A stretch of 64,000 bases of DNA. It comes from Candidatus Flemingiibacterium sp. Lineage in GTDB: Bacteria; Bacillota; Clostridia; Oscillospirales; CAG-272. Of this stretch, positions 6,186 to 55,293 are shown piece by piece; position 1 is the first letter of the stretch; each line of letters opens with the position of its first letter. Below the pieces are notes generated by a model, which did not search any database, was not told the origin of the DNA, and saw only the letters and a list, made by a program, of their open reading frames with translations. The translations under genes were made by a program, and so were the position numbers. The DNA lies in assembly GCA_045636145.1 (NCBI GenBank), contig JAZTWV010000047.1, positions 11,101-75,100 on the forward strand, read 5' to 3'.

Positions 6186-7223
6186 ATGTCAATGAGATCA
6201 AACAGATATAGAATAGTAATGCGTGCCGTATTGCTGATCTTATGTACCGCCATACTCTCTTTCGGAATTTTTGCGGCTGAATCGGGAGCGTCGGACGTAA
6301 AAATGCTTATACCGGGCGGAGTTCCTTTTGGTGTAAAGCTTTATTCCGAAGGTGTACTTGTTGTAGGTGTTGACAGTGTGATGTGCGGCGGAAAAAGTAT
6401 CAGTCCGGCAGGAAATGCCGGAATCAGAGAAAGGGATATGATAATTTCCGTAAACGGTCAGAGTGTTATTGAAGCGGCTCAGGTGTCCGAGCTTGTAAAT
6501 GCCTCCGGCGGTGAGGCTGTTGAGGTCGCCGTAAAGCGCGGAGACGCGGAGCTTGTATTTTCTGTGACTCCCGTTATTTCGGAGGAGGACGGAAAATACA
6601 GGACAGGACTTTGGATAAGAGACAGCACAGCAGGAATCGGTACTGTAACATATATTGATCCGAAATACGGAAGCTTTGCAGGACTTGGTCACGGAATATG
6701 TGACGTTGATACGGGTGAGCTTGTGCCGCTTTCACGAGGGAGCGTTGTTAATGTGGAAATAAGCGGTGTCGTAAAGGGGCGCTCGGGCACGCCGGGAGAG
6801 CTTAAAGGATATTTCAGCTCGGGCAAGATAGGTACACTATTCGGAAACAGGGAATGCGGCGTGTACGGCATATTTGCGCAGTATCCTGAGGGGGTAGACA
6901 GCAAAACTGTACCGGTATCCTTGCCGGGGGAGATATGTGACGGTGAGGCAGAGATGCTGTGTACTGTGGACAGTGGAGGTGTGAGTCCGTATAAGGTGGA
7001 GATATCTCATATAGATCACTCCGGACGAAGTGTGAAAAATTTTGTTGTCAATGTTACCGATCCGGCACTTCTTGAAAAAACAGGCGGTATTGTGCAAGGC
7101 ATGAGCGGCTCTCCAATAATCCAAAACGGCAAGCTTGTTGGAGCGGTGACTCACGTCTTTATTAACGATCCTACAAAGGGGTACGGGATATTTATTGAAA
7201 ATATGCTCTCTGAGGCAAGCTGA
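6186..7223 (+). CDS. spoIVB: SpoIVB peptidase (stage IV sporulation signalling protease, S55)
   Basis: 345 aa. Signal/TM segment, PDZ-like region, GIGTVTYIDP...AGLGHGI (His) and GIVQGMSGSPI (Ser) catalytic motifs. Confidence 0.85.
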   Translation: MSMRSNRYRIVMRAVLLILCTAILSFGIFAAESGASDVKMLIPGGVPFGVKLYSEGVLVVGVDSVMCGGKSISPAGNAGIRERDMIISVNGQSVIEAAQVSELVNASGGEAVEVAVKRGDAELVFSVTPVISEEDGKYRTGLWIRDSTAGIGTVTYIDPKYGSFAGLGHGICDVDTGELVPLSRGSVVNVEISGVVKGRSGTPGELKGYFSSGKIGTLFGNRECGVYGIFAQYPEGVDSKTVPVSLPGEICDGEAEMLCTVDSGGVSPYKVEISHIDHSGRSVKNFVVNVTDPALLEKTGGIVQGMSGSPIIQNGKLVGAVTHVFINDPTKGYGIFIENMLSEAS

Positions 7224-7299
7224 ATATAAAGGATGGAGCGGTCCTGTAAAGTCCGCTTCATCCTAAATTTATGCTTTTGATTTTCAATAAAATTCAAAA

Positions 7300-7327
7300 T
7301 TCGACAAATTTCGAAGCTTTTTCGACC
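7300..7327 (+). promoter_or_regulatory. Three phased Spo0A-box-like heptamers TTCGACA-aat-TTCGAAG-cttt-TTCGACC
   Basis: TTCGACA is the exact reverse complement of the 0A box TGTCGAA. The heptamers start at 7300, 7310 and 7321 (10-11 bp phasing). 7300-7315 is the exact reverse complement of 8960-8975. Confidence 0.6.
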
Positions 7328-7370
7328 ACTGCTAATAAATCTGCCTGTATGGGTTTATGTGTAATGCCAA

Positions 7371-7399
7371 TTGAAATATTCTGCGGTTTATGATACAAT
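7371..7399 (+). promoter_or_regulatory. Sigma-A-type promoter of Spo0A_C paralog 1 (TTGAAA-17-TACAAT)
   Basis: TTGAAA at 7371-7376, 17-nt spacer, TACAAT at 7394-7399, 62 nt before the ATG. Same geometry as 8876-8904 on the other strand. Confidence 0.6.
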
Positions 7400-7461
7400 A
7401 AATATATGAGCAAAGCTTATAGTAATAAAACAGCTATGTTTAAGACGGAAAGGCATACCGT

Positions 7462-7866
7462 ATGAATAACTTTGATGAAAAAAACGACGTAACTAATCTT
7501 TTTACCGCGGCTGAAATCTCAAGAAAACTGTTTTCTTTGTTTCCGCTTCTCGGAATATCGGCAAATCTCAGGGGATTTAAATATCTTTGTGACGCTGTTT
7601 GCGAAGTGTATTATGATCCAGTTGTAGGAGAGCGTGTGGTGAAAGGCTTGTACCGCTTTATAGCGCAAAAGAATAACACCACGCCTGACTGCGTGGAGCA
7701 TTCTATCAGAACGGCACTTGGAAGATTGGAGCGCCCCGGAAACAAAGCGAAATATTTTGAATTTGTCGGCAAAGAGGTTGGATATACGGCAAAGAAATTT
7801 ATAAATGCGGTTGCAGGCAAGCTTAGAGCGGAAAGCATGACGGAAAATACAAAAGTACAAATATAA
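7462..7866 (+). CDS. Stand-alone Spo0A C-terminal DNA-binding domain protein, paralog 1 (no receiver domain)
   Basis: 134 aa. LGISANLRGFKYLCDAVCEVYYD...LYRFIAQKNNTTPDCVEHSIRTAL...KFINAVAGKLR aligns with B. subtilis Spo0A [23 protein letters not shown]...[24 protein letters not shown]...EFIAMVADKLR (recalled from memory). SD GAAAGG precedes the ATG. Confidence 0.8.
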   Translation: MNNFDEKNDVTNLFTAAEISRKLFSLFPLLGISANLRGFKYLCDAVCEVYYDPVVGERVVKGLYRFIAQKNNTTPDCVEHSIRTALGRLERPGNKAKYFEFVGKEVGYTAKKFINAVAGKLRAESMTENTKVQI

Positions 7867-7876
7867 AAAATAAGTT

Positions 7877-7916
7877 CCCCTGTAAAAGCTTTGAAAATCC
7901 AAGGCTTTTACGGGGG
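7877..7916. terminator. 13-bp hairpin between the convergent Spo0A_C genes (probable bidirectional terminator)
   Basis: CCCCTGTAAAAGC (7877-7889) pairs with GCTTTTACGGGGG (7904-7916) with one G.U pair. A-run upstream, T-rich downstream. Confidence 0.6.
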
Positions 7917-7931
7917 ATTATGTATTTAAGG

Positions 7932-7960
7932 TTGACTTTTGAATGTCTGTGTGTTACAAT
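7932..7960 (+). promoter_or_regulatory. Orphan near-consensus sigma-A promoter (TTGACT-17-TACAAT) pointing antisense into paralogs 2/3
   Basis: TTGACT at 7932-7937, 17-nt spacer, TACAAT at 7955-7960. No credible plus-strand CDS lies downstream. Confidence 0.45.
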
Positions 7961-8038
7961 GTACCTATAGCTTTTGAATTTGCTAACCTACACCGGTCTG
8001 CACTACAGTATTATCAAGATTGAGCTTAAAAAACAGAA

Positions 8039-8410
8039 CTATTGCCTGCTGTCAAATTCTGCTGATATTTCATGCAGACGTCTTGCAATAGCGGAAATAA
8101 ACTGTGCGCAGGTGGGATGGCGGTGTGTAATGTCACAGTCAAAATACCTGCCAAACTCAAAAATACGACCGATGCGGCAGGCGCGCTCAACTGCATGACG
8201 GCAGTTCCGCTCAACGCCGGCGGCATCGGAAGCATGGCATAATCGTGCTACCTTGGGGTACAACGTTTTTGTTATGTATTCGGTTATGTCGGGCGAATGA
8301 TATGCAAGTATTATTGAGCATCTTAAGTAGTCATAACCCTTACAGCTTACCGGAATCCCAAGGTATATCAGAATATCGGTAATTTGAATGTCAAGAGCTT
8401 CATCACTCAT
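8039..8410 (-). CDS. Stand-alone Spo0A C-terminal DNA-binding domain protein, paralog 2 (Cys/His-rich)
   Basis: 123 aa. LGIPVSCKGYDYLRCSIILAY...LYPKVARLCHASDAAGVERNCRHAVERA...AQFISAIARRL. ATGA start/stop overlap with paralog 3, and SD GGAAGG lies inside the upstream gene. Confidence 0.8.
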   Translation of the reverse strand: MSDEALDIQITDILIYLGIPVSCKGYDYLRCSIILAYHSPDITEYITKTLYPKVARLCHASDAAGVERNCRHAVERACRIGRIFEFGRYFDCDITHRHPTCAQFISAIARRLHEISAEFDSRQ

Positions 8411-8817
8411 AGGTTGGTCCTTCCGGTATTTATCAGATTACGTCTCAGCTTATCCGCAAGAAGTGCTGTGAATTCTCGTACAGATGGAGTGCTTTCAGCA
8501 TTGCTTTTTAAAAAGTGTTCGCCAAGCTTCAATTTATCGCCGTTTTTAAAAAGGAGCTTTATTGCGGTTCGGCAGTTTCGTTCCACGCAGGATACGGTGG
8601 TGCAGTTTTCTTCCGCTATCTGCCGATACAGTCCAACGATAACATTTCTGATAGCGATTTTGTCCATATATACGATCTCTATAGCGCGGCAGAGGTACGA
8701 AAATCCCTTAAGGTGTGTGGACATTCCCATCTCCGTAAGCAGGGTGCGTATTTGCCGGATCAATTCTTCTTCTGTATATTCCGTGAACTCAAGGGGGCGG
8801 TAGGGGTGTGCTTGCAT
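8407..8817 (-). CDS. Stand-alone Spo0A C-terminal DNA-binding domain protein, paralog 3
   Basis: MGMSTHLKGFSYLCRAIEIVYMD...LYRQIAEENCTTVSCVERNCRTAI...EFTALLADKLR. Start set at ATG 8815-8817 (SD AGGAG, giving 136 aa). The 165-aa ORF-track version would run over its own promoter. Confidence 0.8.
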   Translation of the reverse strand: MQAHPYRPLEFTEYTEEELIRQIRTLLTEMGMSTHLKGFSYLCRAIEIVYMDKIAIRNVIVGLYRQIAEENCTTVSCVERNCRTAIKLLFKNGDKLKLGEHFLKSNAESTPSVREFTALLADKLRRNLINTGRTNL

Positions 8818-8875
8818 AGTCTTGCTCCTGTGGTGTATTATTTGCCGATATCTGCATTGAATGTTAACATATATA

Positions 8876-8904
8876 ATTATACCACATAAGTGCGCAGGTT
8901 TCAA
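8876..8904 (-). promoter_or_regulatory. Sigma-A-type promoter of the paralog 3-2 operon (TTGAAA-17-TATAAT)
   Basis: Minus strand: TTGAAA at 8904-8899, 17-nt spacer, TATAAT at 8881-8876. It lies 55 nt downstream of the 0A-box pair, exactly as for paralog 1. Confidence 0.6.
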
Positions 8905-8958
8905 TTAGGATAATTCCCGAACATTCAGACTGTGTTTTTTGCATAATATACTATAAAT

Positions 8959-8975
8959 TTTCGAAATTTGTCGAA
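8959..8975 (-). promoter_or_regulatory. Tandem 0A-box pair TTTCGAA-att-TGTCGAA (plus-strand reading)
   Basis: Contains a perfect TGTCGAA 0A box at 8969-8975 and a second heptamer 3 bp away, the head-to-tail geometry of tandem 0A boxes. The 16-mer 8960-8975 is the reverse complement of 7300-7315. Confidence 0.6.
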
Positions 8976-8986
8976 AAGTGAAAGAT

Positions 8987-9011
8987 TCGGTAAAATAAGT
9001 AAAAAAATATT
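8987..9011. repeat. 25-nt AT-rich motif TCGGTAAAATAAGTAAAAAAATATT, copy 1 of 2
   Basis: Nearly identical to 46934-46958 (TCGGTGAAAATAAGTAAAAAATATT). Both copies lie 11-12 nt from a 0A-like box. Confidence 0.5.
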
Positions 9012-9058
9012 AGTCTGTCACCGCGTTGCGATGACGGACAGCTAATGAAAGGAAGCAT

Positions 9059-9991
9059 ATGAACATATACAGATCTTTTGGAGAACTTATAGGAAAAACG
9101 CCTCTTTTTGAGACAGTGCATTACGGTACAGAACATAATCTTACGGCAAAAATATTCGCAAAGCTTGAATATTTTAATCCGGCAGGCAGTGTTAAGGACA
9201 GAGCGGCTCTTTATATGATAAATGACGCCGAAAAAAGCGGCAGACTTAAGCCGGGTGGGACGATAATAGAGCCTACAAGCGGAAATACGGGCATAGGACT
9301 TGCGGCAGTTGCCGCTTCACGCGGATACAGGGTCATACTTACCATGCCCGATACCATGAGCGTGGAACGCCGGACTCTGCTTGGCGCTTACGGAGCCGAG
9401 CTGATCCTTACAGACGGCAAACTCGGTATGTCGGGTGCCATAGAGAAGGCGAGGGAGCTTGCGGCGCAGATTGACGGAAGCATAATAGCGGGACAGTTTG
9501 AAAATCCGGCAAATGCTATGGCGCATTATGAGACCACAGGTCCTGAGATATGGGAGGATATGGACGGCAAGGTCGACATATTCGTTGCCGGCGTTGGAAC
9601 GGGCGGCACTATCACGGGAATCGGCAGATATCTTAAAGAGAAAAATCCGAATGTAAAAATAGTTGCCGTAGAGCCTGCTTCCTCACCTATGCTTTCCAAG
9701 GGAAAGAGCGGAGCACACGGGCTTCAAGGCATCGGAGCGAATTTTGTGCCGGATATACTCGATGTATCGCTTCTTGACGAAATTATAACCGTAAACGAGA
9801 AAGAGGCATACGGTGCCGCAAGGGCACTTGCAGGGAGCGAGGGAATCCTTGTGGGAATTTCTTCCGGTGCGGCTCTCCATGCCGCAGCCTTGCTTGCAAA
9901 GCGTCCGGAGAATGCAGGACTAAGTATCGTGGTACTGCTTCCGGATACGGGCGACAGATATTTGTCAACACCCCTTTTTGACGGTAAATAA
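9059..9991 (+). CDS. cysK: Cysteine synthase A (O-acetylserine sulfhydrylase)
   Basis: 310 aa. PLP-dependent fold with [19 protein letters not shown] and [10 protein letters not shown] motifs. SD GAAAGGAAG. Confidence 0.9.
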
Positions 9992-13618: not shown

Positions 13619-14578
13619 TTATTGATTAAATTCCTTTAAAAACCATATTTTGCTCTTTTGCGCCGAAAAGCTTTTTTTATCGAGGTAATCAAGCACGGTG
13701 CCGTGGGTTTTGAACTTAAATTCCAGCTTGTATGCGTATAACGCCTGAAATTTGTATCCATGCTTTCTATCGTCCCTGTTTATGCCGTATTTTCCGTCTC
13801 CAAGGAGCGGATGACCGATTGATGCAAAGTGTGCACGTATTTGATGTGTTCGCCCTGTAACAAGCTCCACTTCAACAAGCGAAAGGTCACGGGTTTCTTC
13901 AAGCACACGGTATTTTGTGATTATTTCCTTGTAACCCGGACGGGGAGACGTTGAAATATCCACCATGTTGCTGGCGGAGTCCTTTTTTAAGTATCCTCTC
14001 AGCGTGTCGGTTTTCTTCTTTGTAATACCGTGAATCGCGGCAAGGTAAAACTTTGACAGCTCGTCGTTTTTAATCTTTTCGTTCATTACGCGAAGCGCTT
14101 CCGCATTTTTTGCCGCGATGACAATGCCGCCGGTGTTTCTGTCGATGCGGTTGCACAGCGCGGGAGCGAATGACTGCTCGTCCTCGGGCTTATATTCACC
14201 TTTTCTGTAGAGGTAAGCTTTGACATGACCTATAAGGGTATTAACCTCTTCCTCGTCATCGGAATGAACAATAAGCCCCGGCTGTTTTTCAAGGAGCATT
14301 ATGTTTTCATCCTCGTATACGATGTCAAGATGAGGTGTCAGCTTCATAAAAGCCTGTTCCGTTGCGGTATCCGAGAAAAATTCCTCAGATACGAACATCT
14401 CGACTGTATCGCCCTCATTTAGAATATACCCGATGTCGGTACGCTTGCGATTTACCTTTATCTTTTTGGTGCGTATGCATTTGTACATAAGCGATTTTGG
14501 CATTGCCTTGACCGCTTTTGAAAGAAATTTATCAAGACGCTGTCCTGCGTCATTCTGTTTTATATATAATGTGCGCAT
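13619..14578 (-). CDS. RluA family pseudouridine synthase (S4 domain plus catalytic domain)
   Basis: 319 aa. QRLDKFL S4-like start, NRIDRNTGGIVIAAKN catalytic Asp motif, TGRTHQIRAH. Confidence 0.85.
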   Translation of the reverse strand: MRTLYIKQNDAGQRLDKFLSKAVKAMPKSLMYKCIRTKKIKVNRKRTDIGYILNEGDTVEMFVSEEFFSDTATEQAFMKLTPHLDIVYEDENIMLLEKQPGLIVHSDDEEEVNTLIGHVKAYLYRKGEYKPEDEQSFAPALCNRIDRNTGGIVIAAKNAEALRVMNEKIKNDELSKFYLAAIHGITKKKTDTLRGYLKKDSASNMVDISTSPRPGYKEIITKYRVLEETRDLSLVEVELVTGRTHQIRAHFASIGHPLLGDGKYGINRDDRKHGYKFQALYAYKLEFKFKTHGTVLDYLDKKSFSAQKSKIWFLKEFNQ

Positions 14579-14651
14579 TGATTACTCCTGTGACTTGTAT
14601 CGGTGTTGTTTGACGTTGTAACGCGCCGAAATGTTCCCGAAATTCATATAT

Positions 14652-47142: not shown

Positions 47143-47598
47143 ATGGAAGAAAACATCAAAGCTCCGATAACACGTCATACGGCGCGCGAGTATGTATTTG
47201 CGCTCCTGTTTGCAAGGGCGTTCTCTCCGGATGAGCCGGCAGATGAATTTTACGCCCTTGAGCTTGAAAATGCCGAGATAGAGTTCGGAGATCAGATAGA
47301 TTATGTTCACGACGTATTTTTCGGTATCACGGACAACCTTACCGAGATAGACGAGAAAATTTCCGCGGCGGCAGAGGGATGGGCACTCAGCCGTATTGCC
47401 AAGGTTACACTTGCAATTATGCGCGTGTGCGTTTTTGAAATGATGAACGTCTCCGATGTCCCGAAGCGCGTTGCTCTTAACGAAGCGGTGGAGCTTGCAA
47501 AGAAATATGACGACGATAATGCTCCGGCGTTCATAAACGGTGTACTTAACACAATTTCACACGCTTTGCCTGACCGTCCCTGCGATATTGATTCATGA
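47143..47598 (+). CDS. nusB: Transcription antitermination factor NusB
   Basis: 151 aa. TRHTAREYVFALLF... and NGVLNTI motifs. An in-frame stop at 47101 leaves this ATG as the only possible start. Confidence 0.9.
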   Translation: MEENIKAPITRHTAREYVFALLFARAFSPDEPADEFYALELENAEIEFGDQIDYVHDVFFGITDNLTEIDEKISAAAEGWALSRIAKVTLAIMRVCVFEMMNVSDVPKRVALNEAVELAKKYDDDNAPAFINGVLNTISHALPDRPCDIDS

Positions 47599-48557
47599 AA
47601 CGCTTTTACATCGGTATAGACACATCGAATTATACCACCTCGTGTGCTCTTTTCGATACTGACGAATGCAGGTTTCATTCAAACGTAAAGCGGCTCCTCG
47701 GCGTTTTGGATGGGGAGCGCGGACTGCGTCAAAGCGATGCGGTGTTTGCGCATATAAAGAATTTGCCGTCGGTTACTGCCGAAGCATTTTGTGATATTGT
47801 CCCCGAAGCACTGTGCGCCGTTGGCGTATCTTATGCTCCGAGAGATGCGGAAGGCTCCTATATGCCATGCTTTCTTTCCGGTGTGGCGGCGGCTTCCACA
47901 CTTGCAAATGCCGTGAAAAAGCCTCTCCACCGATTTTCTCATCAGGCAGGGCACATTATGGCGGCGGTTTGGTCTGCAAATGCCAAAGATTTGCTGAACC
48001 GTGAATTTATCGCTTTCCACGTATCGGGAGGCACTACGGAAATCCTTCGGGTCACTCCAAAGGCGGTTGGCTTTGACATAGCGAAGCTTGGCGGAACGGC
48101 TGACCTTAACGCAGGTCAGTGCATTGACCGTGTGGGCGTTGCCATGGGGCTTAGTTTTCCCTGCGGACCGAAGCTTGAGACGCTTGCCCTTGAAAACACG
48201 GAGAAGCTTCCAAAGCCGAAGCTTTCGGTAAAAGGATGCGAGTGCAACCTTTCAGGCGTTGAAAACACGGCGGTAAGACTGCTTGGGGAGGGCAAATCTC
48301 CGGAATATGTGTCAGCGTATGTGCTTGATTTTATCGGGCGCACACTTATAGAGCTTACCAAAAACGCCCTTGACGGCACGGATATGCCTGTACTGTATGC
48401 AGGCGGTGTTATGAGTAATTCCATTATCAAAAGCATGATATCAGAGTGCGGATTTGACGCAAGATTTGCAAAACCCGAATATTCAAGCGACAATGCCGCA
48501 GGCTGTGCGCTTCTGTGCGCGGCGGCGGAGGAGGGATGGGAGTTTTGGACGAAATAA
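47595..48557 (+). CDS. Kae1/TsaD-like (glycoprotease/peptidase M22 fold) protein
   Basis: 320 aa. ASKHA-fold start YIGIDTSNYTTSCAL, SHQAGHI (HxxGH-like) and YAGGVMSN. Shorter and more divergent than a canonical TsaD. Confidence 0.55.
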   Translation: MKRFYIGIDTSNYTTSCALFDTDECRFHSNVKRLLGVLDGERGLRQSDAVFAHIKNLPSVTAEAFCDIVPEALCAVGVSYAPRDAEGSYMPCFLSGVAAASTLANAVKKPLHRFSHQAGHIMAAVWSANAKDLLNREFIAFHVSGGTTEILRVTPKAVGFDIAKLGGTADLNAGQCIDRVGVAMGLSFPCGPKLETLALENTEKLPKPKLSVKGCECNLSGVENTAVRLLGEGKSPEYVSAYVLDFIGRTLIELTKNALDGTDMPVLYAGGVMSNSIIKSMISECGFDARFAKPEYSSDNAAGCALLCAAAEEGWEFWTK

Positions 48558-49801
48558 ACGAAAATGCTCCCGTGGCGGAGGATAAAGGCAGAGCGGTGCT
48601 GACTATTGCACAGCTTAACGCCTATGTAAAACAGCTTATTGACGGTGACGGACTGCTTGCAAACGTCTTTGTCAAGGGCGAGATATCGAATTTCACAAAT
48701 CACTATAAAACGGGGCATTTTTATTTTACCCTTAAAGACCCGGACAGCCTTATCCGTGCCGTTATGTTTAAAAGTGCCGCGGCAAGGCTTAAATTTCTCC
48801 CCGAAAACGGCATGAAAGTCATTGTCAGAGGCCGTGTTTCAGCATTTGTACGTGACGGACAGTATCAGATATATGTGGAGAGCATGGAGCCGGACGGAGT
48901 TGGCAGTCTTTACATTGCATTTGAGCAGCTTAAGCGCAAGCTTGAAGCGGAGGGACTGTTTTCGCCTGCGAGAAAACGTCCGATTCCCAAAATACCCACA
49001 CGAATAGGCATAATTACCTCGCCCACAGGCGCGGCGGTCAGAGACATGATAAATATAACGCGAAGGAGATTCCCCTATGCCAAGCTTACCTTGTTTCCTT
49101 CGCTGGTACAGGGACCGGGGGCGGCGGCACAGCTTATCTCCGGTGTAAATCATTTTAACGCCGCAAAAAGCGTTGATGTAATCATTATCGGACGGGGCGG
49201 CGGCTCTATTGAGGATTTGTGGGCGTTCAATGACGAGACGCTCGCAAGAACGGTTGCCGCAAGCGAAATACCGGTAATAAGCGCAGTGGGACACGAAACG
49301 GATTTCACCATCTGCGATTTTGCGGCAGATGTGCGCGCTCCCACCCCCTCGGCGGCGGCAGAGCTTGCTGTGCCGGATACGGAAGAGCTGCTTCGTAAGA
49401 TAAACAACATTGTGGGGCATATGGAGCTGGCACTGACCAAGAATATCGGTATGCAGAGAACAAGACTTGAACAGCTTGCAAAGAGTAGGGCACTTACTTC
49501 CCCGCAGAATTTTATTGATGACAAGCGTATGGCGGTGCTGTCGCTTGCCGGACGTATGGAGCAGGGAATCAAGCTGTCGCTTACAAACAAGCGCGGCAGA
49601 TTTGCCTCGCTCACGGCATCTCTTGAAGCTCTTAATCCTATGTCTGTAATCTCCCGCGGATATTCTGCGGTCTTTGACGATTCGGGCAAGCTTGTAAAGA
49701 GCACTAAACAGATAAAAAAAGGCGACCGTTTCAAATTCCGTACAACTGACGGAAGCGTCATTGGAGAAGCGGTTGAGGTCATAACCGATAAAAAGGTGTG
49801 A
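48536..49801 (+). CDS. xseA: Exodeoxyribonuclease VII large subunit
   Basis: LTIAQLNAYVKQLI...GEISNFTNHYKTGHFYFTLKD (OB fold), GIITSPTGAAVRD, GRGGGSIEDLW. The start is uncertain between 48515 and 48536. Confidence 0.85.
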   Translation: MGVLDEINENAPVAEDKGRAVLTIAQLNAYVKQLIDGDGLLANVFVKGEISNFTNHYKTGHFYFTLKDPDSLIRAVMFKSAAARLKFLPENGMKVIVRGRVSAFVRDGQYQIYVESMEPDGVGSLYIAFEQLKRKLEAEGLFSPARKRPIPKIPTRIGIITSPTGAAVRDMINITRRRFPYAKLTLFPSLVQGPGAAAQLISGVNHFNAAKSVDVIIIGRGGGSIEDLWAFNDETLARTVAASEIPVISAVGHETDFTICDFAADVRAPTPSAAAELAVPDTEELLRKINNIVGHMELALTKNIGMQRTRLEQLAKSRALTSPQNFIDDKRMAVLSLAGRMEQGIKLSLTNKRGRFASLTASLEALNPMSVISRGYSAVFDDSGKLVKSTKQIKKGDRFKFRTTDGSVIGEAVEVITDKKV

Positions 49802-49825
49802 AGACAGAAAGGAATGGTCGTAACC

Positions 49826-50074
49826 ATGGAAAATAATAAGGAGCTTGCTTTTGAGGAAGCACTTGCAAGACTTGAGGAGATCGTTCGCGCCCTTGACGGC
49901 GGTGCCGCACCTCTTGATGAGTCTTTGGCACTGTTTGAAGAGGGTGTTCGGCTTGTTAAGCTGTGCTCCGCAAAGCTTGACGGCGCAGAGCAGAGAGTAA
50001 AGATACTTGTACGCGGTGAGGACGGAACGGTTTCGGAAGAAGATCTTCCCCCCATGCAGGAGGGCGGCAGATGA
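49826..50074 (+). CDS. xseB: Exodeoxyribonuclease VII small subunit
   Basis: FEEALARLEEIVRALD...LDESLALFEEGVRLVKLC. The start is either the second ATG (49826) or 49814. Confidence 0.85.
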   Translation: MENNKELAFEEALARLEEIVRALDGGAAPLDESLALFEEGVRLVKLCSAKLDGAEQRVKILVRGEDGTVSEEDLPPMQEGGR

Positions 50075-50982
50075 CCGGCTTTGAGATTGAAAAACTGCTT
50101 TCTGTTGGTGCGGATGCGGTTGAATCGGTGCTTTCGGAATATGCGGCAGGCGATGATGAAAAGTTCGGCGTTATTTACGAAGCGGTACGCTACAGTCTGC
50201 TTGGCGGCGGAAAACGGCTTAGACCGTTTATAGTTCTTCAGTTTGCGCTTCTTGCGGCGGCAGAGAGCGGTGCTGACCCGGAGCGTGCTTATATGGCAGC
50301 GCTTCCGTATGCATCGGCACTTGAAATGATACACACATATTCACTTATACACGACGACCTGCCGTGTATGGATAACGACGACCTTCGCCGCGGAAAGCCT
50401 ACAAGCCACATAAAATTCGGCGAGGCGAATGCACTGCTTGCAGGCGATGCGCTTCTCACCCGTTCTTTCGGTGTTGCGGTGTCAAATGCCTACGCGTCTC
50501 CCGAAACAAACTGCCTTGCGGCGGCACTGCTTTCGGAATGTGCAGGTATGGGCGGCATGATCGGCGGTCAGGTGCTTGATCTTATAGGTGAGAGTGAGCA
50601 CTTCGACATGGAAACTCTTGAGCGGCTTCAGTCGCTTAAGACCGGCGAGCTTATAAGATGTGCGGCTCTTCTCGGATGCTATGCAGGTGGTGCTTCGGAA
50701 AAAATGTGCGAGGCGGCGGAAAAATACGCGATGGGAATCGGAAGAGCATTCCAGGTTATAGATGATATTCTTGATGCCACCGGAGACGAAAAACTGCTGG
50801 GTAAGCCTATCGGAAGTGACAGGGAAAGCGGTAAAACCACATTTCTCACGTTTATGACCATCGACGAAGCGCGTGCTTATGCCGCGAGTCTTACAGAGAA
50901 TGCAAAGGCGGCGGTAGAAAGCTTCTGCGGCTCGGAAATACTGTGTGCCCTTGCAGATTATTTGTTGACAAGGAAGAAATAA
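50071..50982 (+). CDS. ispA: Polyprenyl (farnesyl/geranylgeranyl) diphosphate synthase
   Basis: LIHDDLPCMDNDDLRRG (first Asp-rich motif) and FQVIDDILD (second). Confidence 0.85.
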   Translation: MTGFEIEKLLSVGADAVESVLSEYAAGDDEKFGVIYEAVRYSLLGGGKRLRPFIVLQFALLAAAESGADPERAYMAALPYASALEMIHTYSLIHDDLPCMDNDDLRRGKPTSHIKFGEANALLAGDALLTRSFGVAVSNAYASPETNCLAAALLSECAGMGGMIGGQVLDLIGESEHFDMETLERLQSLKTGELIRCAALLGCYAGGASEKMCEAAEKYAMGIGRAFQVIDDILDATGDEKLLGKPIGSDRESGKTTFLTFMTIDEARAYAASLTENAKAAVESFCGSEILCALADYLLTRKK

Positions 50983-51435
50983 ATGGAGTACGTTACAGGC
51001 TTTTTTACAAACTATATTTTGGTATGCGCACTTATCGGTTGGTTTGGTGCGCAGTTTATAAAGTGTGTCAGATACATAGCAAGACACAAAAGTTTCAGTT
51101 TTGCTGTGATCATGTCTTCGGGTGGGATGCCAAGCTCACACTCCGCCACAGTAAGTGCCCTTGTGGTTTCTGCGGCAAAGCTGTGCGGTACATCGTCACC
51201 TGAATTTGCTCTTGCGTTTATACTTGCCTTTATTGTTATGTATGATGCGGCAGGCGTAAGGAGAGCGGCAGGAGAGCAGGCTAAAGTGCTTAACCGAATT
51301 GCACACGATATTTCGCTTGGCGATACAAAATACCTTGATAAGAATCTTAAGGAGCTTATCGGTCATACACCTCTGCAGGTGGTAATGGGAGCTTTGCTTG
51401 GTATTGCCATAGGCGTGATCGTGCCCGTATTTTGA
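50983..51435 (+). CDS. Divergent PAP2 family membrane protein (DUF212)
   Basis: 150 aa. GGMPSSHSATVSAL motif. Confidence 0.7.
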   Translation: MEYVTGFFTNYILVCALIGWFGAQFIKCVRYIARHKSFSFAVIMSSGGMPSSHSATVSALVVSAAKLCGTSSPEFALAFILAFIVMYDAAGVRRAAGEQAKVLNRIAHDISLGDTKYLDKNLKELIGHTPLQVVMGALLGIAIGVIVPVF

Positions 51436-52208
51436 TAATGCGTATCGATAAATATTTATTTGAGCACGGATTTGCCAAAAGCCGAGAGGCGGCAAAGCGA
51501 ATGATCGGCGAGGGAATCGTTGAGCTTGACGGCAGAATCGTAAGTAAGGCTTCCGAGGATGCCGGAGATGAAAGCAGTGTCCGTATTGTTGGAGAAACCC
51601 TGCGGTATGTGAGCCGCGGAGGACTTAAGCTTGAGCGTGCACTTGAGGCATTTTCGCTTGATGCTTCTGGACTTGACTGCGTTGACATCGGTGCTTCCAC
51701 GGGAGGATTCACAGACTGTCTTCTAAAAAACGGTGCGGCGCGTGTTCGCTGTGTTGATGTGGGGCGTTCCCAACTTGACGAAAGTCTTGCCAAGGACTGC
51801 CGCGTTGTGTCCTTTGAAGGAATGAACGCACGGTACATTACAGCCGATGATATCGGAGGCAGGTGTGATCTTGCGGTGTGCGACGTGTCCTTTATCTCGC
51901 TGACGCTTATTATGCCGGCTGTTGCAGGACTTTTGCGTGAGGGCGGAAAATTTGTGGCACTTATAAAGCCGCAGTTTGAAGCAGGGCGTGCAAATATCGA
52001 AAAAAACGGTATTGTCAAAGACAGAAACGTCCATACGGAGGTTATTTTACGGGTCCTTGATTTTGCCGAGACGTTGGGACTTTACTGCGGTGATCTTACG
52101 GTGTCCCCCATATACGGCGGTGACGGAAACCGTGAGTATCTTGCCTATTTTGACGGTATTGGCGGCTTTGACAAGGCTAATATAAAAAACATCGTGTATG
52201 ATACATGA
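51432..52208 (+). CDS. tlyA: TlyA family rRNA 2'-O-methyltransferase
   Basis: S4-like start RIDKYLFEHGFAKSREAAKRMI and SAM motif DIGASTGGFTDCLL. Confidence 0.85.
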   Translation: MIMRIDKYLFEHGFAKSREAAKRMIGEGIVELDGRIVSKASEDAGDESSVRIVGETLRYVSRGGLKLERALEAFSLDASGLDCVDIGASTGGFTDCLLKNGAARVRCVDVGRSQLDESLAKDCRVVSFEGMNARYITADDIGGRCDLAVCDVSFISLTLIMPAVAGLLREGGKFVALIKPQFEAGRANIEKNGIVKDRNVHTEVILRVLDFAETLGLYCGDLTVSPIYGGDGNREYLAYFDGIGGFDKANIKNIVYDT

Positions 52209-52242
52209 TTTTACATTCAAACACAGATGAGGTTGTGATTTT

Positions 52243-53103
52243 TTGAAAGCTATCGGAATATATCAGGATCCCAAAAACGATGTGGATTTTCTCGGAACAC
52301 TCAGGGTAATAAACGCGCTTGGCGGCAGGTGGCAGGTGATTATGCACCGCTCTCTTCGGGATAAGCTGTGTGCCGCACTCAGTGATGATGTGTGCCGTGC
52401 CATATACTTTGCGGATGATGCGGAGCTGTTCAGTGCACCCGACATGATGATCGTGCTCGGCGGCGACGGAACAATACTCAAAGCCGCGCGAAGCTGTGCC
52501 GCAGGAAATATACCGATTCTCGGAATAAATCTCGGGCGTATCGGCTACATGGCGGAGCTTGAGCTTGACGAGCTTTCAGCTTTTGACAGGCTCCAGAGCG
52601 GTGATTATAAAGTAGAGCGCCGCATGATGCTTGAAGCGGATATAGGCGGTGAGCGTCTGTTTGCACTTAACGAAGCCGTGGTTGGCGGCGCGTCAATTTT
52701 CCGCATTGTGGAAATTGAGCTTTACTGCGACGGCAAGCCGGTGAACTCCTACAGAGCGGACGGACTTATCGCATCCACCCCAACAGGCTCTACCGCATAC
52801 TCAATGTCCGCAGGCGGTGCGGTGGTTGACCCGCGCATGGAGGCACTTCTCATAACGCCAATATGTTCCCACTCTCTTAATGCTACGCCGCTTGTGTTTT
52901 CCGCAGAGTCGGAGCTTCGTATGAAAAACATTACGGTGCGTGAGGAAAAGCTCTATATAAATATTGACGGCTGTGAGACTAGGACGCTTTCTTTCGGAGA
53001 ATCGGTGACATTTCGCCGCTCTGCTGAGACAGTAAGCTTTATACGACTTAAGGACGGCGGATTTTATGATGTGCTCCGTCACAAAATGGCGGACAGACAC
53101 TAA
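52243..53103 (+). CDS. nadK: NAD kinase
   Basis: VLGGDGTIL and NLGRIGYM motifs. TTG start. Confidence 0.85.
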   Translation: MKAIGIYQDPKNDVDFLGTLRVINALGGRWQVIMHRSLRDKLCAALSDDVCRAIYFADDAELFSAPDMMIVLGGDGTILKAARSCAAGNIPILGINLGRIGYMAELELDELSAFDRLQSGDYKVERRMMLEADIGGERLFALNEAVVGGASIFRIVEIELYCDGKPVNSYRADGLIASTPTGSTAYSMSAGGAVVDPRMEALLITPICSHSLNATPLVFSAESELRMKNITVREEKLYINIDGCETRTLSFGESVTFRRSAETVSFIRLKDGGFYDVLRHKMADRH

Positions 53104-53115
53104 AGGGGAATTAGC

Positions 53116-53571
53116 ATGAAATACAATCGTCAGGCTGAGATAATATCTATAATCAGTGAAAATCAAATAGAGACCCAGGAAGAATTGTCAGAATGCCTCA
53201 GACAAAGAGGCTTTATGGTTACACAAGCTACGATTTCAAGAGATATCCGCGAAATGAAGCTTGTTAAGGTTGCCGGTGGTGGCAAGTATGTGTATGCACT
53301 GCCGCAGACTGAGGAGCGCGGTATCAGCCAAAAGGCACGAAATCTTCTTGTGGAGACTGTGGAAAATGTAGACCGTGCCAACAATATTGCGGTTGTAAAA
53401 ACCTATGCCGGTATGGCACAGGGCGCGGCGGCTGCCATTGATTCCATGGGTCGCTCGGATATTGTGGGAAGCGTTGCGGGGGATGACACGATCATTATCG
53501 TAATGCGTACAAACGATGCGGCGCAGTCACTTTGCGATGAGCTTTGTGAAATAGTAAACGGCGGAAGATGA
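53116..53571 (+). CDS. argR: Arginine repressor
   Basis: 151 aa. RQAEIISIISENQIETQEELSECL...VTQATISRDIREM, and a C-terminal GDDTIIIV motif. Confidence 0.9.
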   Translation: MKYNRQAEIISIISENQIETQEELSECLRQRGFMVTQATISRDIREMKLVKVAGGGKYVYALPQTEERGISQKARNLLVETVENVDRANNIAVVKTYAGMAQGAAAAIDSMGRSDIVGSVAGDDTIIIVMRTNDAAQSLCDELCEIVNGGR

Positions 53572-53592
53572 TTTTTCCACGGACGAAAGGCG

Positions 53593-55293
53593 GTGAGGTC
53601 TTTGCTGTACTCACTTCATATTGAAAACATAGCGGTCATAAAGTCCGCGAGTATTGATTTTAGCGGCGGTTTCAGCGTGCTTACAGGTGAGACCGGTGCA
53701 GGTAAATCCATAATAATTGATAGTATAAATCTTATATGCGGCGCAAAGCAGTCACGCGAGCTTATAAGAAACGGCGAGGACAGTGCACGGGTTTCCGCAG
53801 TGTTCGGTGAGCTTTCGGGTCACGCGGCACGCGCCCTTGATGAGCTTGGCATTCCTGCCGACGAAGACGGTATGATAATGTTCGAGCGCACACTTACCAC
53901 TCAGGGCAAATCCGTATCACGTGCCAACGGACGGACAATACCGCAGTCGCTTCAGCGTGAGGCTATGAAATATCTTATCGGTATACACGGTCAGCACGAT
54001 AATATGGCACTGCTTATGCCGGAAAATCATATTATTTATCTTGATGAGTTCGCGGATATAGAACAGCCCCTCTTAAAATATCAGGAGAGCTACGAGCGGT
54101 ACTGCGAATTAAAACGAAAGATTGCGGAGCTTCGCTCAGGCGAGCGTGAAAAGGCGCAGAAGCTGGAATTTCTTCGGTATCAGATCGAGGAGATCGAGGC
54201 GGTTAAGCTGAAGCCCGACGAGGAAGAAAAGCTTCTTGCAAGGCGCGCCAAGCTTCAGAACAGCGAGCGGATAACAATGCTTTCCGATACGGTATATTCA
54301 CTTCTTTACCGCAACGAAAAGGGGACGGCGGCACTTGATAAGGTTAAAAAGGCGGAGCGTGCCTTGGAGGCACTTGCACCTATAATGGATGATGCCGATT
54401 CGCTCATATCGAGACTTGATTCCATAACGTATGAGCTTGAAGATATAGCCCTTACCATTGACGCGCTTCGGGACGACGAATATGATGACCCAACGGCAGA
54501 GCTTGACAGAGTCGAGACCCGTCTTGATAAAATATCGAGAATTGAGCGCAAATACGGAGATACGGTCCCCGAAGTGCTGGCGTTTCTTGATAAAGCCAAG
54601 GCGGAGCTTGAAGAAACAGAGCTTTCCGAGGAGAATTTAGCTTCTGCGGAGGCAGAGCTTGCAGCTTTACTTGCCGAAATGGCGAAGATGGCAGATGAGC
54701 TATCCGAAAAACGCCTTGGTGCGGCAAAAAAGCTTGAGACGGAAATAATACGTGAGCTTTCCTATCTTGAAATGGGCGGTGTTAGCTTCTCTGTCTCGGT
54801 AAAGCGGCGGGTTGAATCCGACGGCGGTGTGGCGTATGCAAAACGGGGGGCTGACGACGTTGAATTTATGATATCCACAAACAAGGGCGAGCCACTGAAG
54901 CCTCTTGCGAGGATTGCATCGGGCGGTGAGCTTTCAAGAATAATGCTTACGGTTAAGACCGTGCTTGCGGAGAAGGATTCCCCGGGTACGCTGATATTCG
55001 ATGAGGTTGACACGGGTGTGTCGGGAAAGACCTCGGAGAAGATCGGCATAAAGCTTCGAGAGCTTGCAGGACTTGGCGGACAGGTTTTGTGTGTTACCCA
55101 TTCCGCGCAGATAGCGGCGAGGGCAGAAAATCACTACCTTATTGAAAAACGCGAGGTTGACGGCAGGGTGCACACATCGGTAACACCGCTTGACGGTGAC
55201 GGAAGAGTCAGAGAAACTGCGCGCATCATGGGCGGTATAAACATTACCGATAAGCTTATTGAAACAGCGCGTGAAATGATAAATCAAAAATAA
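53593..55293 (+). CDS. recN: DNA repair protein RecN
   Basis: LHIENIAVIK..., Walker A GETGAGKSIIIDS, coiled-coil centre, signature ASGGELSRIML, Walker B LIFDEVD. The start may be the TTG at 53602. Confidence 0.9.
   Translation: MRSLLYSLHIENIAVIKSASIDFSGGFSVLTGETGAGKSIIIDSINLICGAKQSRELIRNGEDSARVSAVFGELSGHAARALDELGIPADEDGMIMFERTLTTQGKSVSRANGRTIPQSLQREAMKYLIGIHGQHDNMALLMPENHIIYLDEFADIEQPLLKYQESYERYCELKRKIAELRSGEREKAQKLEFLRYQIEEIEAVKLKPDEEEKLLARRAKLQNSERITMLSDTVYSLLYRNEKGTAALDKVKKAERALEALAPIMDDADSLISRLDSITYELEDIALTIDALRDDEYDDPTAELDRVETRLDKISRIERKYGDTVPEVLAFLDKAKAELEETELSEENLASAEAELAALLAEMAKMADELSEKRLGAAKKLETEIIRELSYLEMGGVSFSVSVKRRVESDGGVAYAKRGADDVEFMISTNKGEPLKPLARIASGGELSRIMLTVKTVLAEKDSPGTLIFDEVDTGVSGKTSEKIGIKLRELAGLGGQVLCVTHSAQIAARAENHYLIEKREVDGRVHTSVTPLDGDGRVRETARIMGGINITDKLIETAREMINQK

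Follow-up and report, generated by a model that had tools for sequence, protein, structure and literature searches.

Three genes encoding stand-alone Spo0A-type DNA-binding domains, here called A, B and C, lie between spoIVB and cysK in a 64,000-nucleotide stretch of the genome of Candidatus Flemingiibacterium sp. (uncultured gut Clostridia; assembly GCA_045636145.1, contig JAZTWV010000047.1), and this whole stretch is referred to below as the window. The reading that we favour, at a probability of roughly 0.55, is that the trio constitutes a vertically inherited chromosomal accessory set of stand-alone Spo0A_C transcription factors that would modulate the Spo0A regulon. An earlier examination of the letters alone (hereafter the original prediction) had described three receiver-less Spo0A_C paralogues at this locus, and profile searches bear this out for the following genes.

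Positions 7462-7866, plus strand: paralogue A, 134 amino acids, Spo0A_C only, with recognition helix CVEHSIRTA.
Positions 8039-8410, minus strand: paralogue B, second in the C-B operon, 123 amino acids, Spo0A_C only, with recognition helix GVERNCRHA.
Positions 8407-8817, minus strand: paralogue C, first in the C-B operon, 136 amino acids, Spo0A_C only, with recognition helix CVERNCRTA.

Gene A is monocistronic, while C and B are translationally coupled through a 4-nucleotide (nt) ATGA overlap (8407-8410) that had already been pointed out, and the two units are convergent. Shine-Dalgarno sites precede A (GGAAAGG), C (AGGAG) and also B. For C, the 136-residue form starting at ATG is the one present in the public collection; an alternative TTG start at 8904 overlaps the -35 element.

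All three proteins match Spo0A_C (Pfam PF08769, a profile of 104 positions) well above its gathering score of 25 bits, with 62.6 bits for A (E 3.9e-17), 83.4 bits for B (E 1.3e-23) and 78.2 bits for C (E 5.3e-22). The matches begin at profile positions 1-7 and run to position 104 of 104, in line with the end-to-end alignment to the Spo0A effector domain reported before, for which all of the quoted peptide motifs are present. Between 9 (B) and about 28 (A) residues precede the domain, a range that corrects the 20-35 given originally. When the proteins were compared with the PDB by phmmer, the sole matches were the Spo0A effector-domain entries 1FC3 and 1LQ1, aligned over near full length with E values of 1e-9 for A and, against 1FC3, 2e-16 for B and 6e-13 for C. 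An AF2 structure model of A, the most divergent paralogue, has a pLDDT of 79 and matches only 1FC3 and 1LQ1 in Foldseek, with a query TM score of 0.72, target TM scores of 0.81-0.88 and a root-mean-square deviation of 2.1 Å.

The part of Spo0A that is missing from these proteins is equally well defined. No match to Response_reg was found in A, B or C at E<=1 with Pfam, and the Spo0A equivalog model TIGR02875 (cutoff 200 bits) gives 48.9 bits for A, 76.2 for B and 69.5 for C, aligned at model positions 144-259 only. Searches of the three intergenic gaps for a receiver (REC) remnant returned only noise, at <=0.1 bit with a REC hidden Markov model (HMM) and <=18.5 bits with tblastn, so that the remnant-free gap between spoIVB and A that had been claimed stands.

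The recognition helix reads VERNCRH in B and VERNCRT in C, both of which keep the VER..R pattern of Spo0A, and VEHSIRT in A, where R is replaced by H. The residues of B. subtilis Spo0A that read the 0A box would be E213, R214 and R217 (numbering of the 1LQ1 literature). In the B orthologues of two related loci, L091 and L093 (L numbers denote related loci throughout), the corresponding residues are VAR or VSR. In the alignment, the helix that matches the sigma-A-activating region of Spo0A is not conserved in the trio.

The three genes are maintained by selection and are old. Comparison with the sister strain (L006/L007, GCA_015656795.1) gives dN/dS values of 0.12 (A), 0.08 (B) and 0.21 (C), similar to those of the neighbouring cysK (0.08) and Na/H exchanger gene (0.09), and A, B and C are under purifying selection. 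A neighbour-joining tree of the domains recovers an A clade (bootstrap 77%), a C-type clade (65%), a B-type clade (99%) and a joint A+C clade (100%); orthologues from different lineages cluster according to type, the A and C families are sisters, and no member of the trio is nested among the local canonical Spo0A proteins. Identity between the trio and canonical Spo0A C-domains is 29-35%, while canonical C-domains share 70% among themselves. The paralogues form old orthologous groups and did not arise by recent truncation of a resident spo0A.

A search for the same arrangement in related genomes revealed the module in four lineages. The first comprises the window and its sister strain, the second L001-L005 (B 65% identical), the third L093 (GCA_054280935.1; C 48% identical) and the fourth L091 (C 52% identical), which has the C-B pair only and lacks A. 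In all four the gene order is Rnf, ACPS, RluD, sulfatase, Na/H exchanger, cysK and C-B; C and B overlap by 4 nt or 1 nt in every lineage, and A is convergent wherever it is present. A scan of JGI metagenomes with the A-type protein recovered the sister-strain contig only. The genes on either side of the module in the window are these.

Positions 6186-7223, plus strand: spoIVB, 345 amino acids, PDZ domain plus S55 peptidase, adjoining the module in the window lineage.
Positions 9059-9991, plus strand: cysK, PALP family, transcribed divergently from C-B and serving as the module's conserved synteny anchor.

The far-side neighbour, opposite cysK, is a sporulation gene in every lineage, though its identity changes. 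In the window, L006 and the 65%-identity species it is spoIVB, with a SpoIVB C-terminus ending in VLINDPTKGYGIFIENMLAKAEKVQ before the stop codon immediately upstream of A in that species. In L091 (10903-12381) and L093 (11506-12984) it is instead spoIVA, which encodes the spore-coat morphogenetic ATPase. Since the far-side gene switches between spoIVB and spoIVA, the module is anchored to cysK and not to a spo0A slot, and adjacency with spoIVB is probably a lineage-specific feature and no relic of spo0A.

The principal new result concerns the control regions of the module, which contain the following elements.

Positions 7300-7327, plus strand: operator of A, three direct-repeat 0A-type boxes (TTCGACA at 7300, TTCGAAG at 7310, TTCGACC at 7321) with periods of 10 and 11 base pairs (bp).
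Positions 7371-7399, plus strand: predicted sigma-A promoter of A, TTGAAA-17-TG-TACAAT, scoring 10/12 with a TG extension in a promoter scan; conserved in L001 and L093.
Positions 7876-7917, no single strand: predicted bidirectional terminator from a terminator scan, a hairpin with an 18-bp stem and T-runs on both strands that can serve both convergent units.
Positions 8876-8904, minus strand: predicted sigma-A promoter of C-B, TTGAAA-17-TG-TATAAT, scoring 11/12 with a TG extension; conserved in L001, L091 and L093.
Positions 8959-8975, minus strand: operator of C-B, tandem 0A boxes TTCGACA aat TTCGAAA, reading TTTCGAA att TGTCGAA on the plus strand.

The consensus 0A box, TGTCGAA, is contacted at G2, C4 and G5 (PMC3485338), and 0A-type boxes at 7300-7327 and 8959-8975 had been noticed at the outset. 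The two sites prove to have in common an exact 16-mer, TTCGACAAATTTCGAA, at 7300-7315 on the plus strand and 8960-8975 on the minus strand, and no further copy was found in the 64 kb even with three mismatches allowed. On the other strand this 16-mer reads TTTCGAA-ATT-TGTCGAA, which corresponds to two direct-repeat 0A boxes with a 10-bp period, one of them the perfect consensus. Both operators begin exactly 71 bp upstream of the -35 element of an extended -10 promoter (TTGAAA-17-TG-TAnAAT). Moreover, two or three tandem TTCGACA boxes begin exactly 71 bp ahead of TTGAA-N17-TGnTAnAAT at all seven trio promoters of the four lineages (7/7), and this layout has been kept while the DNA around it diverged.

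On its own, the 7-mer TGTCGAA shows no enrichment in the window (10 occurrences found, 8.9 expected); only the composite tandem operator is informative. The strict pattern TTCGACA-N3-TTCGA has a single copy in 1.17 Mb from 80 related loci, upstream of the canonical spo0A of L087. Spo0A itself binds upstream of spo0A (PMC3485338), and at least one 0A box is present in five of nine canonical spo0A upstream regions. The idea that canonical spo0A promoters have the same layout as the trio was nevertheless rejected, as tandem boxes occur only in L084 and L087 (n=9) and the spacing in L087 is 97 bp rather than 71. A loose operator match just past spoIVB in L042 was likewise discarded as a chance occurrence inside an unrelated coding region.

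The C-B operator is separated from the cysK start codon by 84 nt in the window and in L091 (9760-9844) and by 86 nt in L093. This operator is overlapped by a weak candidate promoter for cysK (8968-8996), and cysK may for this reason share the C-B control region.

These features are consistent with a mechanism in which A, B and C would bind 0A-type boxes in the absence of phosphorylation, as isolated Spo0A DNA-binding domains do at genuine targets (PMC3485338). Such binding would follow from the absence of the inhibitory receiver. C and B probably occupy neighbouring boxes jointly, in the manner of the head-to-tail Spo0A-C dimer on tandem boxes. The upstream boxes would make the trio genes auto-activated, switched on by phosphorylated canonical Spo0A (Spo0A~P), or both, and the products would then modulate the Spo0A regulon through competition or co-occupancy at 0A boxes. 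The conserved coupling of C and B, together with natural polypeptides that carry two to five of these domains (see below), suggests that several Spo0A_C domains may sit side by side on repeated boxes. Since the sigma-A-activating helix is not conserved, modulation or competition is favoured over full replacement of Spo0A.

Several considerations weigh against this interpretation. The recognition helices are not uniform (VEH in A, VAR or VSR in B of L091 and L093), and because these residues vary among paralogues and orthologues the DNA specificity of the trio may differ from the 0A box. The C-B operator could also serve the divergent cysK. The predicted transcription start is ~92-107 bp away from the operator upstream of it, which is unusually far, and regulation from there could be of either sign; the trio promoters and start sites are themselves predictions. 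Furthermore, that this genome has a canonical Spo0A is an assumption, and the literature yielded no functional study of effector-only Spo0A_C proteins.

The strongest competing explanation is that the Spo0A_C fold has been reused outside sporulation, for instance in a sulfur/cysteine or stationary-phase regulon that includes cysK, with the boxes acting as auto-operators unlinked to Spo0A. We consider this possible, at about one chance in four. The invariant neighbour of the module is cysK, whose start codon lies the same 84 nt from the operator in the window and L091, the recognition helices diverge from canonical Spo0A, and the superfamily is very large and diverse. Also, Faecalibacterium duncaniae expresses three 'Spo0A homologs' in its proteome, and Faecalibacterium is regarded as a non-spore-former (PMC13020158). 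However, the operator core is a perfect tandem 0A box with TGTCGAA, the canonical Spo0A site, and A has the same operator and the same 71-bp spacing even though it does not adjoin cysK. The far-side neighbour in all lineages, spoIVB or spoIVA, belongs to sporulation, and the E-R..R pattern of the recognition helix is kept in C and in B of the window.

A mobile origin is improbable. On this view the trio would be cargo, or a leftover, of a phage or integrative and conjugative element (ICE) that manipulates host sporulation, which has been proposed for truncated spo0A genes borne by phages. Precedents certainly exist: PF08769 is enriched on mobile elements of gut Firmicutes (Jiang et al. 2019, PMC6907783), and phage spo0A homologues are reduced to the effector domain, for which signal-independent activity has been proposed (Schwartz et al. 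2023, mBio, PMC10294663). Two PHROG families match the trio, and the 3′ end of spoIVB, beside A, is an integration hotspot, occupied by an ICE in L001 and by an island in L006. Yet no integrase, phage or conjugation genes were found around the trio in the window, where the flanks are housekeeping genes, and the position beside such genes is kept in four lineages with a protein tree that follows lineage. No close relatives of the trio were found in the phage collection or viral contigs, and the matches in the plasmid collection are canonical spo0A genes. The PHROG scores (35-67 bits) are below the Pfam Spo0A_C scores (63-83 bits), and the insertions in L001 and L006 adjoin the trio rather than contain it.

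Slightly less probable still, and in our view quite unlikely, is replacement, wherein canonical spo0A has been lost and the receiver-less trio acts as a constitutive, phosphorelay-independent master regulator at the old spo0A position. This corresponds to the claim of the original prediction that the trio occupies the spo0A slot. The window contains no full-length spo0A as judged by tblastn, A directly follows spoIVB across a 238-nt gap (7224-7461) as had been described, and spo0A directly follows spoIVB in L059, L061 and L083 with gaps of 106-161 nt. In addition, 0A boxes stand ahead of A as they do ahead of spo0A in some relatives, and the activating effect of receiver deletion on Spo0A is established (also cited in PMC10294663).

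The expectation that spo0A belongs beside spoIVB does not hold in this clade, however. In Bacilli and many Clostridia a block from nusB to recN is followed by spoIVB and spo0A. The window instead has a nusB...xseA...ispA-tlyA-nadK-argR-recN block (47143-55293) in which recN (53593-55293) is followed by tyrS (to 56526), with spoIVB 46 kb away, and no recN was found within 10 kb of spoIVB at any of 80 related spoIVB loci; the conserved recN-spoIVB-spo0A order is not observed. Among the 70 of these loci whose downstream flank spans 1.5 kb or more, full-length spo0A lies downstream of spoIVB in 6 and is directly adjacent in 3, and none of the 70 has a stand-alone Spo0A_C gene downstream of spoIVB. 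Linkage of spoIVB and spo0A is therefore not expected here. Its rarity means that the lack of spo0A beside spoIVB and in the 64 kb, which are a small fraction of the genome, says little about the genome as a whole, and with no nearby spo0A in 64 of 70 loci such absence is the norm. Canonical spo0A contexts in three related metagenome-assembled genomes (MAGs) are all different, and therefore the location of spo0A cannot be inferred from synteny. A search with the Spo0A of a relative returned more than 8,000 candidates, none of them linked to this genome.

Other observations also argue against replacement. The module is tied to cysK and adjoins spoIVA in other lineages, its identity to canonical C-domains is far lower than their mutual identity, and the sigma-activating helix is not conserved. 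In the literature every known spore-former carries canonical Spo0A, and since these genomes keep spoIVB and spoIVA, a canonical spo0A very probably exists elsewhere in this genome. It is quite unlikely that the genus-level lineage of the window lacks any receiver-containing Spo0A. In that event a self-wired A/C-B trio, with tandem 0A boxes on its own promoters, would act as a phosphorylation-independent, possibly bistable switch for entry into sporulation or stationary phase, amounting to a master regulator that has been rebuilt free of two-component input.

Finally, the suggestion that the genes are pseudogene fragments, or assembly or frameshift products of one spo0A, has nothing but their short length in its favour and is excluded by dN/dS values of 0.08-0.21, by three separate full-length domains that each have a start codon and Shine-Dalgarno site in two promoter-bearing units without a REC remnant, and by an identical architecture in independent assemblies from at least nine samples, which also disposes of the artefact that the original prediction had considered.

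The preferred reading, that of a chromosomal accessory set, places the trio among several known groups of proteins. As with Spo0A of B. subtilis and C. difficile (1FC3, 1LQ1), the effector fold aligns end to end, the recognition helix has a similar pattern (with H for R in A), the genes are preceded by tandem TGTCGAA-type boxes of their own in a way that recalls spo0A autoregulation, and A sits after spoIVB. Unlike Spo0A, the trio has no receiver and hence no phosphorylation or phosphorelay input, its C-domains are only 29-35% identical with an unconserved sigma-A-activating helix, its TIGR02875 scores of 49-76 bits fall far from the cutoff of 200, and it consists of three paralogues of which two are co-translated.

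The truncated Spo0A proteins of phages and mobile elements (PMC10294663, PMC6907783) resemble the trio in having the effector domain only and in the idea of activity independent of host signals. In contrast to them, the trio is chromosomal and vertically inherited at a fixed locus in four lineages, and forms a three-gene set with conserved operators and promoters that has no phage or ICE carriers. Some Clostridiales genomes have two or three spo0A paralogues (Galperin et al. 2022 preprint), and these, like the Faecalibacterium homologues, share with the trio the presence of several Spo0A-family genes per genome, whereas operator and synteny analysis is reported for the trio only.

Single polypeptides with two to five tandem Spo0A_C domains also occur among the matches to the trio profile (P0016-P0028, P0030), including P0016 with four domains, P0026 with five and P0017 with three, and are the best-scoring relatives of that profile. 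They use the same domain as the trio but carry it fused in one chain, rather than in separate genes of which two are coupled. One of them, P0030 (1003 amino acids), combines three Spo0A_C domains with Sigma70 region 4 and at least three RNA polymerase alpha-CTD domains, an architecture of which we know no description.

The original prediction had regarded the system as uncharacterised. This holds in that no member has been characterised experimentally, but the class as such has already been published (PMC10294663, PMC6907783) and bears the NCBI name 'Spo0A C-terminal domain-containing protein'. Apparently undescribed, as far as we found, are three features of the module, namely its chromosomal vertical inheritance, its three-paralogue organization and its rigid operator-promoter design.

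The Bacillus phosphorelay is missing from many Clostridia, and the way in which those without it set their threshold for Spo0A activity is under active study. Gut Firmicutes and their phages abound in effector-only Spo0A proteins, with 12,183 cluster representatives retrieved by the trio profile, and the present locus offers a clean case away from mobile elements, with three old paralogues, one co-translated pair and a rigid, conserved operator-promoter design. The prediction is one of phosphorylation-independent binding to tandem 0A boxes with modulation of the Spo0A regulon, and the class is experimentally approachable through defined proteins and defined targets of 16-28 bp. If competition or cooperation with Spo0A~P does take place, it would constitute an unrecognised layer of control on sporulation and thereby on the transmission of gut anaerobes.

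The DNA next to the trio has a history of insertion in related genomes, at the following site.

Positions 7102-7217, plus strand: 3′ end of spoIVB, the insertion site in relatives.

The arrangements at this site mark it as an insertion hotspot. In L006 (11188-11403 and 17558-18598) a 6.2-kb island lies between two copies of the ~116-bp spoIVB 3′ end and contains genes for a glycyl-radical enzyme and its activase, EamA, SGL and AraC. In L001 (about 14537-14620), from the 65%-identity species, an ICE with ParB, TraG/VirD4, TrbL, PrgI and Maff2 starts within the last spoIVB codons. A sugar-utilisation island follows spoIVB in Ca. Flemingiibacterium sp. (L010, 8789-15820).

A segment comprising gene A and its promoter (7319-7918) is 79-88% identical to the sister strain L006, while its flanks are 94-100% identical. 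For B, C, cysK and the Na/H exchanger gene dS is 0.09-0.19, whereas for A it reaches 0.65, and dN/dS of A is still 0.12. The segment looks like an allelic replacement by recombination beside the insertion hotspot.

The PHROG families that match A, B and C at 35-67 bits are phrog_24603, a profile of 111 amino acids, and phrog_37855, a profile of 278 amino acids matched at positions 153-270. Both are listed as having unknown function, and since all three proteins match both, these phage families could be annotated as Spo0A_C-containing.

Some further observations concern the intergenic DNA. The minus-strand tail of the terminator at 7876-7917 is ACTTATTTTTTATATT. Between this terminator and the end of B is a good promoter-like site on the plus strand (7932-7960, TTGACT-17-TG-TACAAT), oriented to read B and C in antisense. 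In L093 a mere 30 nt separate B from A, which leaves no room for this site to be conserved there. Known RNA elements were sought in 7100-9200, and nothing came near a gathering score.

The identity of spoIVB is secure. The protein matches Peptidase_S55 (3e-81) and PDZ_6 in Pfam profile searches, scores 351.8 bits against TIGR02860 (cutoff 305.25), and contains both the GMSGSP serine and the GLGHG histidine motifs. Its nearest named relative is from Ca. Flemingiibacterium sp. at 74% identity, and the remaining matches are from uncultured Eubacteriales, Oscillospiraceae or Clostridia MAGs at <=58%. This SpoIVB is short, with 345 amino acids in the window and 337-346 in the sister strain compared to 397-439 in related genomes. 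As the alignment to TIGR02860 begins only at model position 89, with ~88 N-terminal positions absent, the protein lacks the stretch that links the membrane anchor to the PDZ domain.

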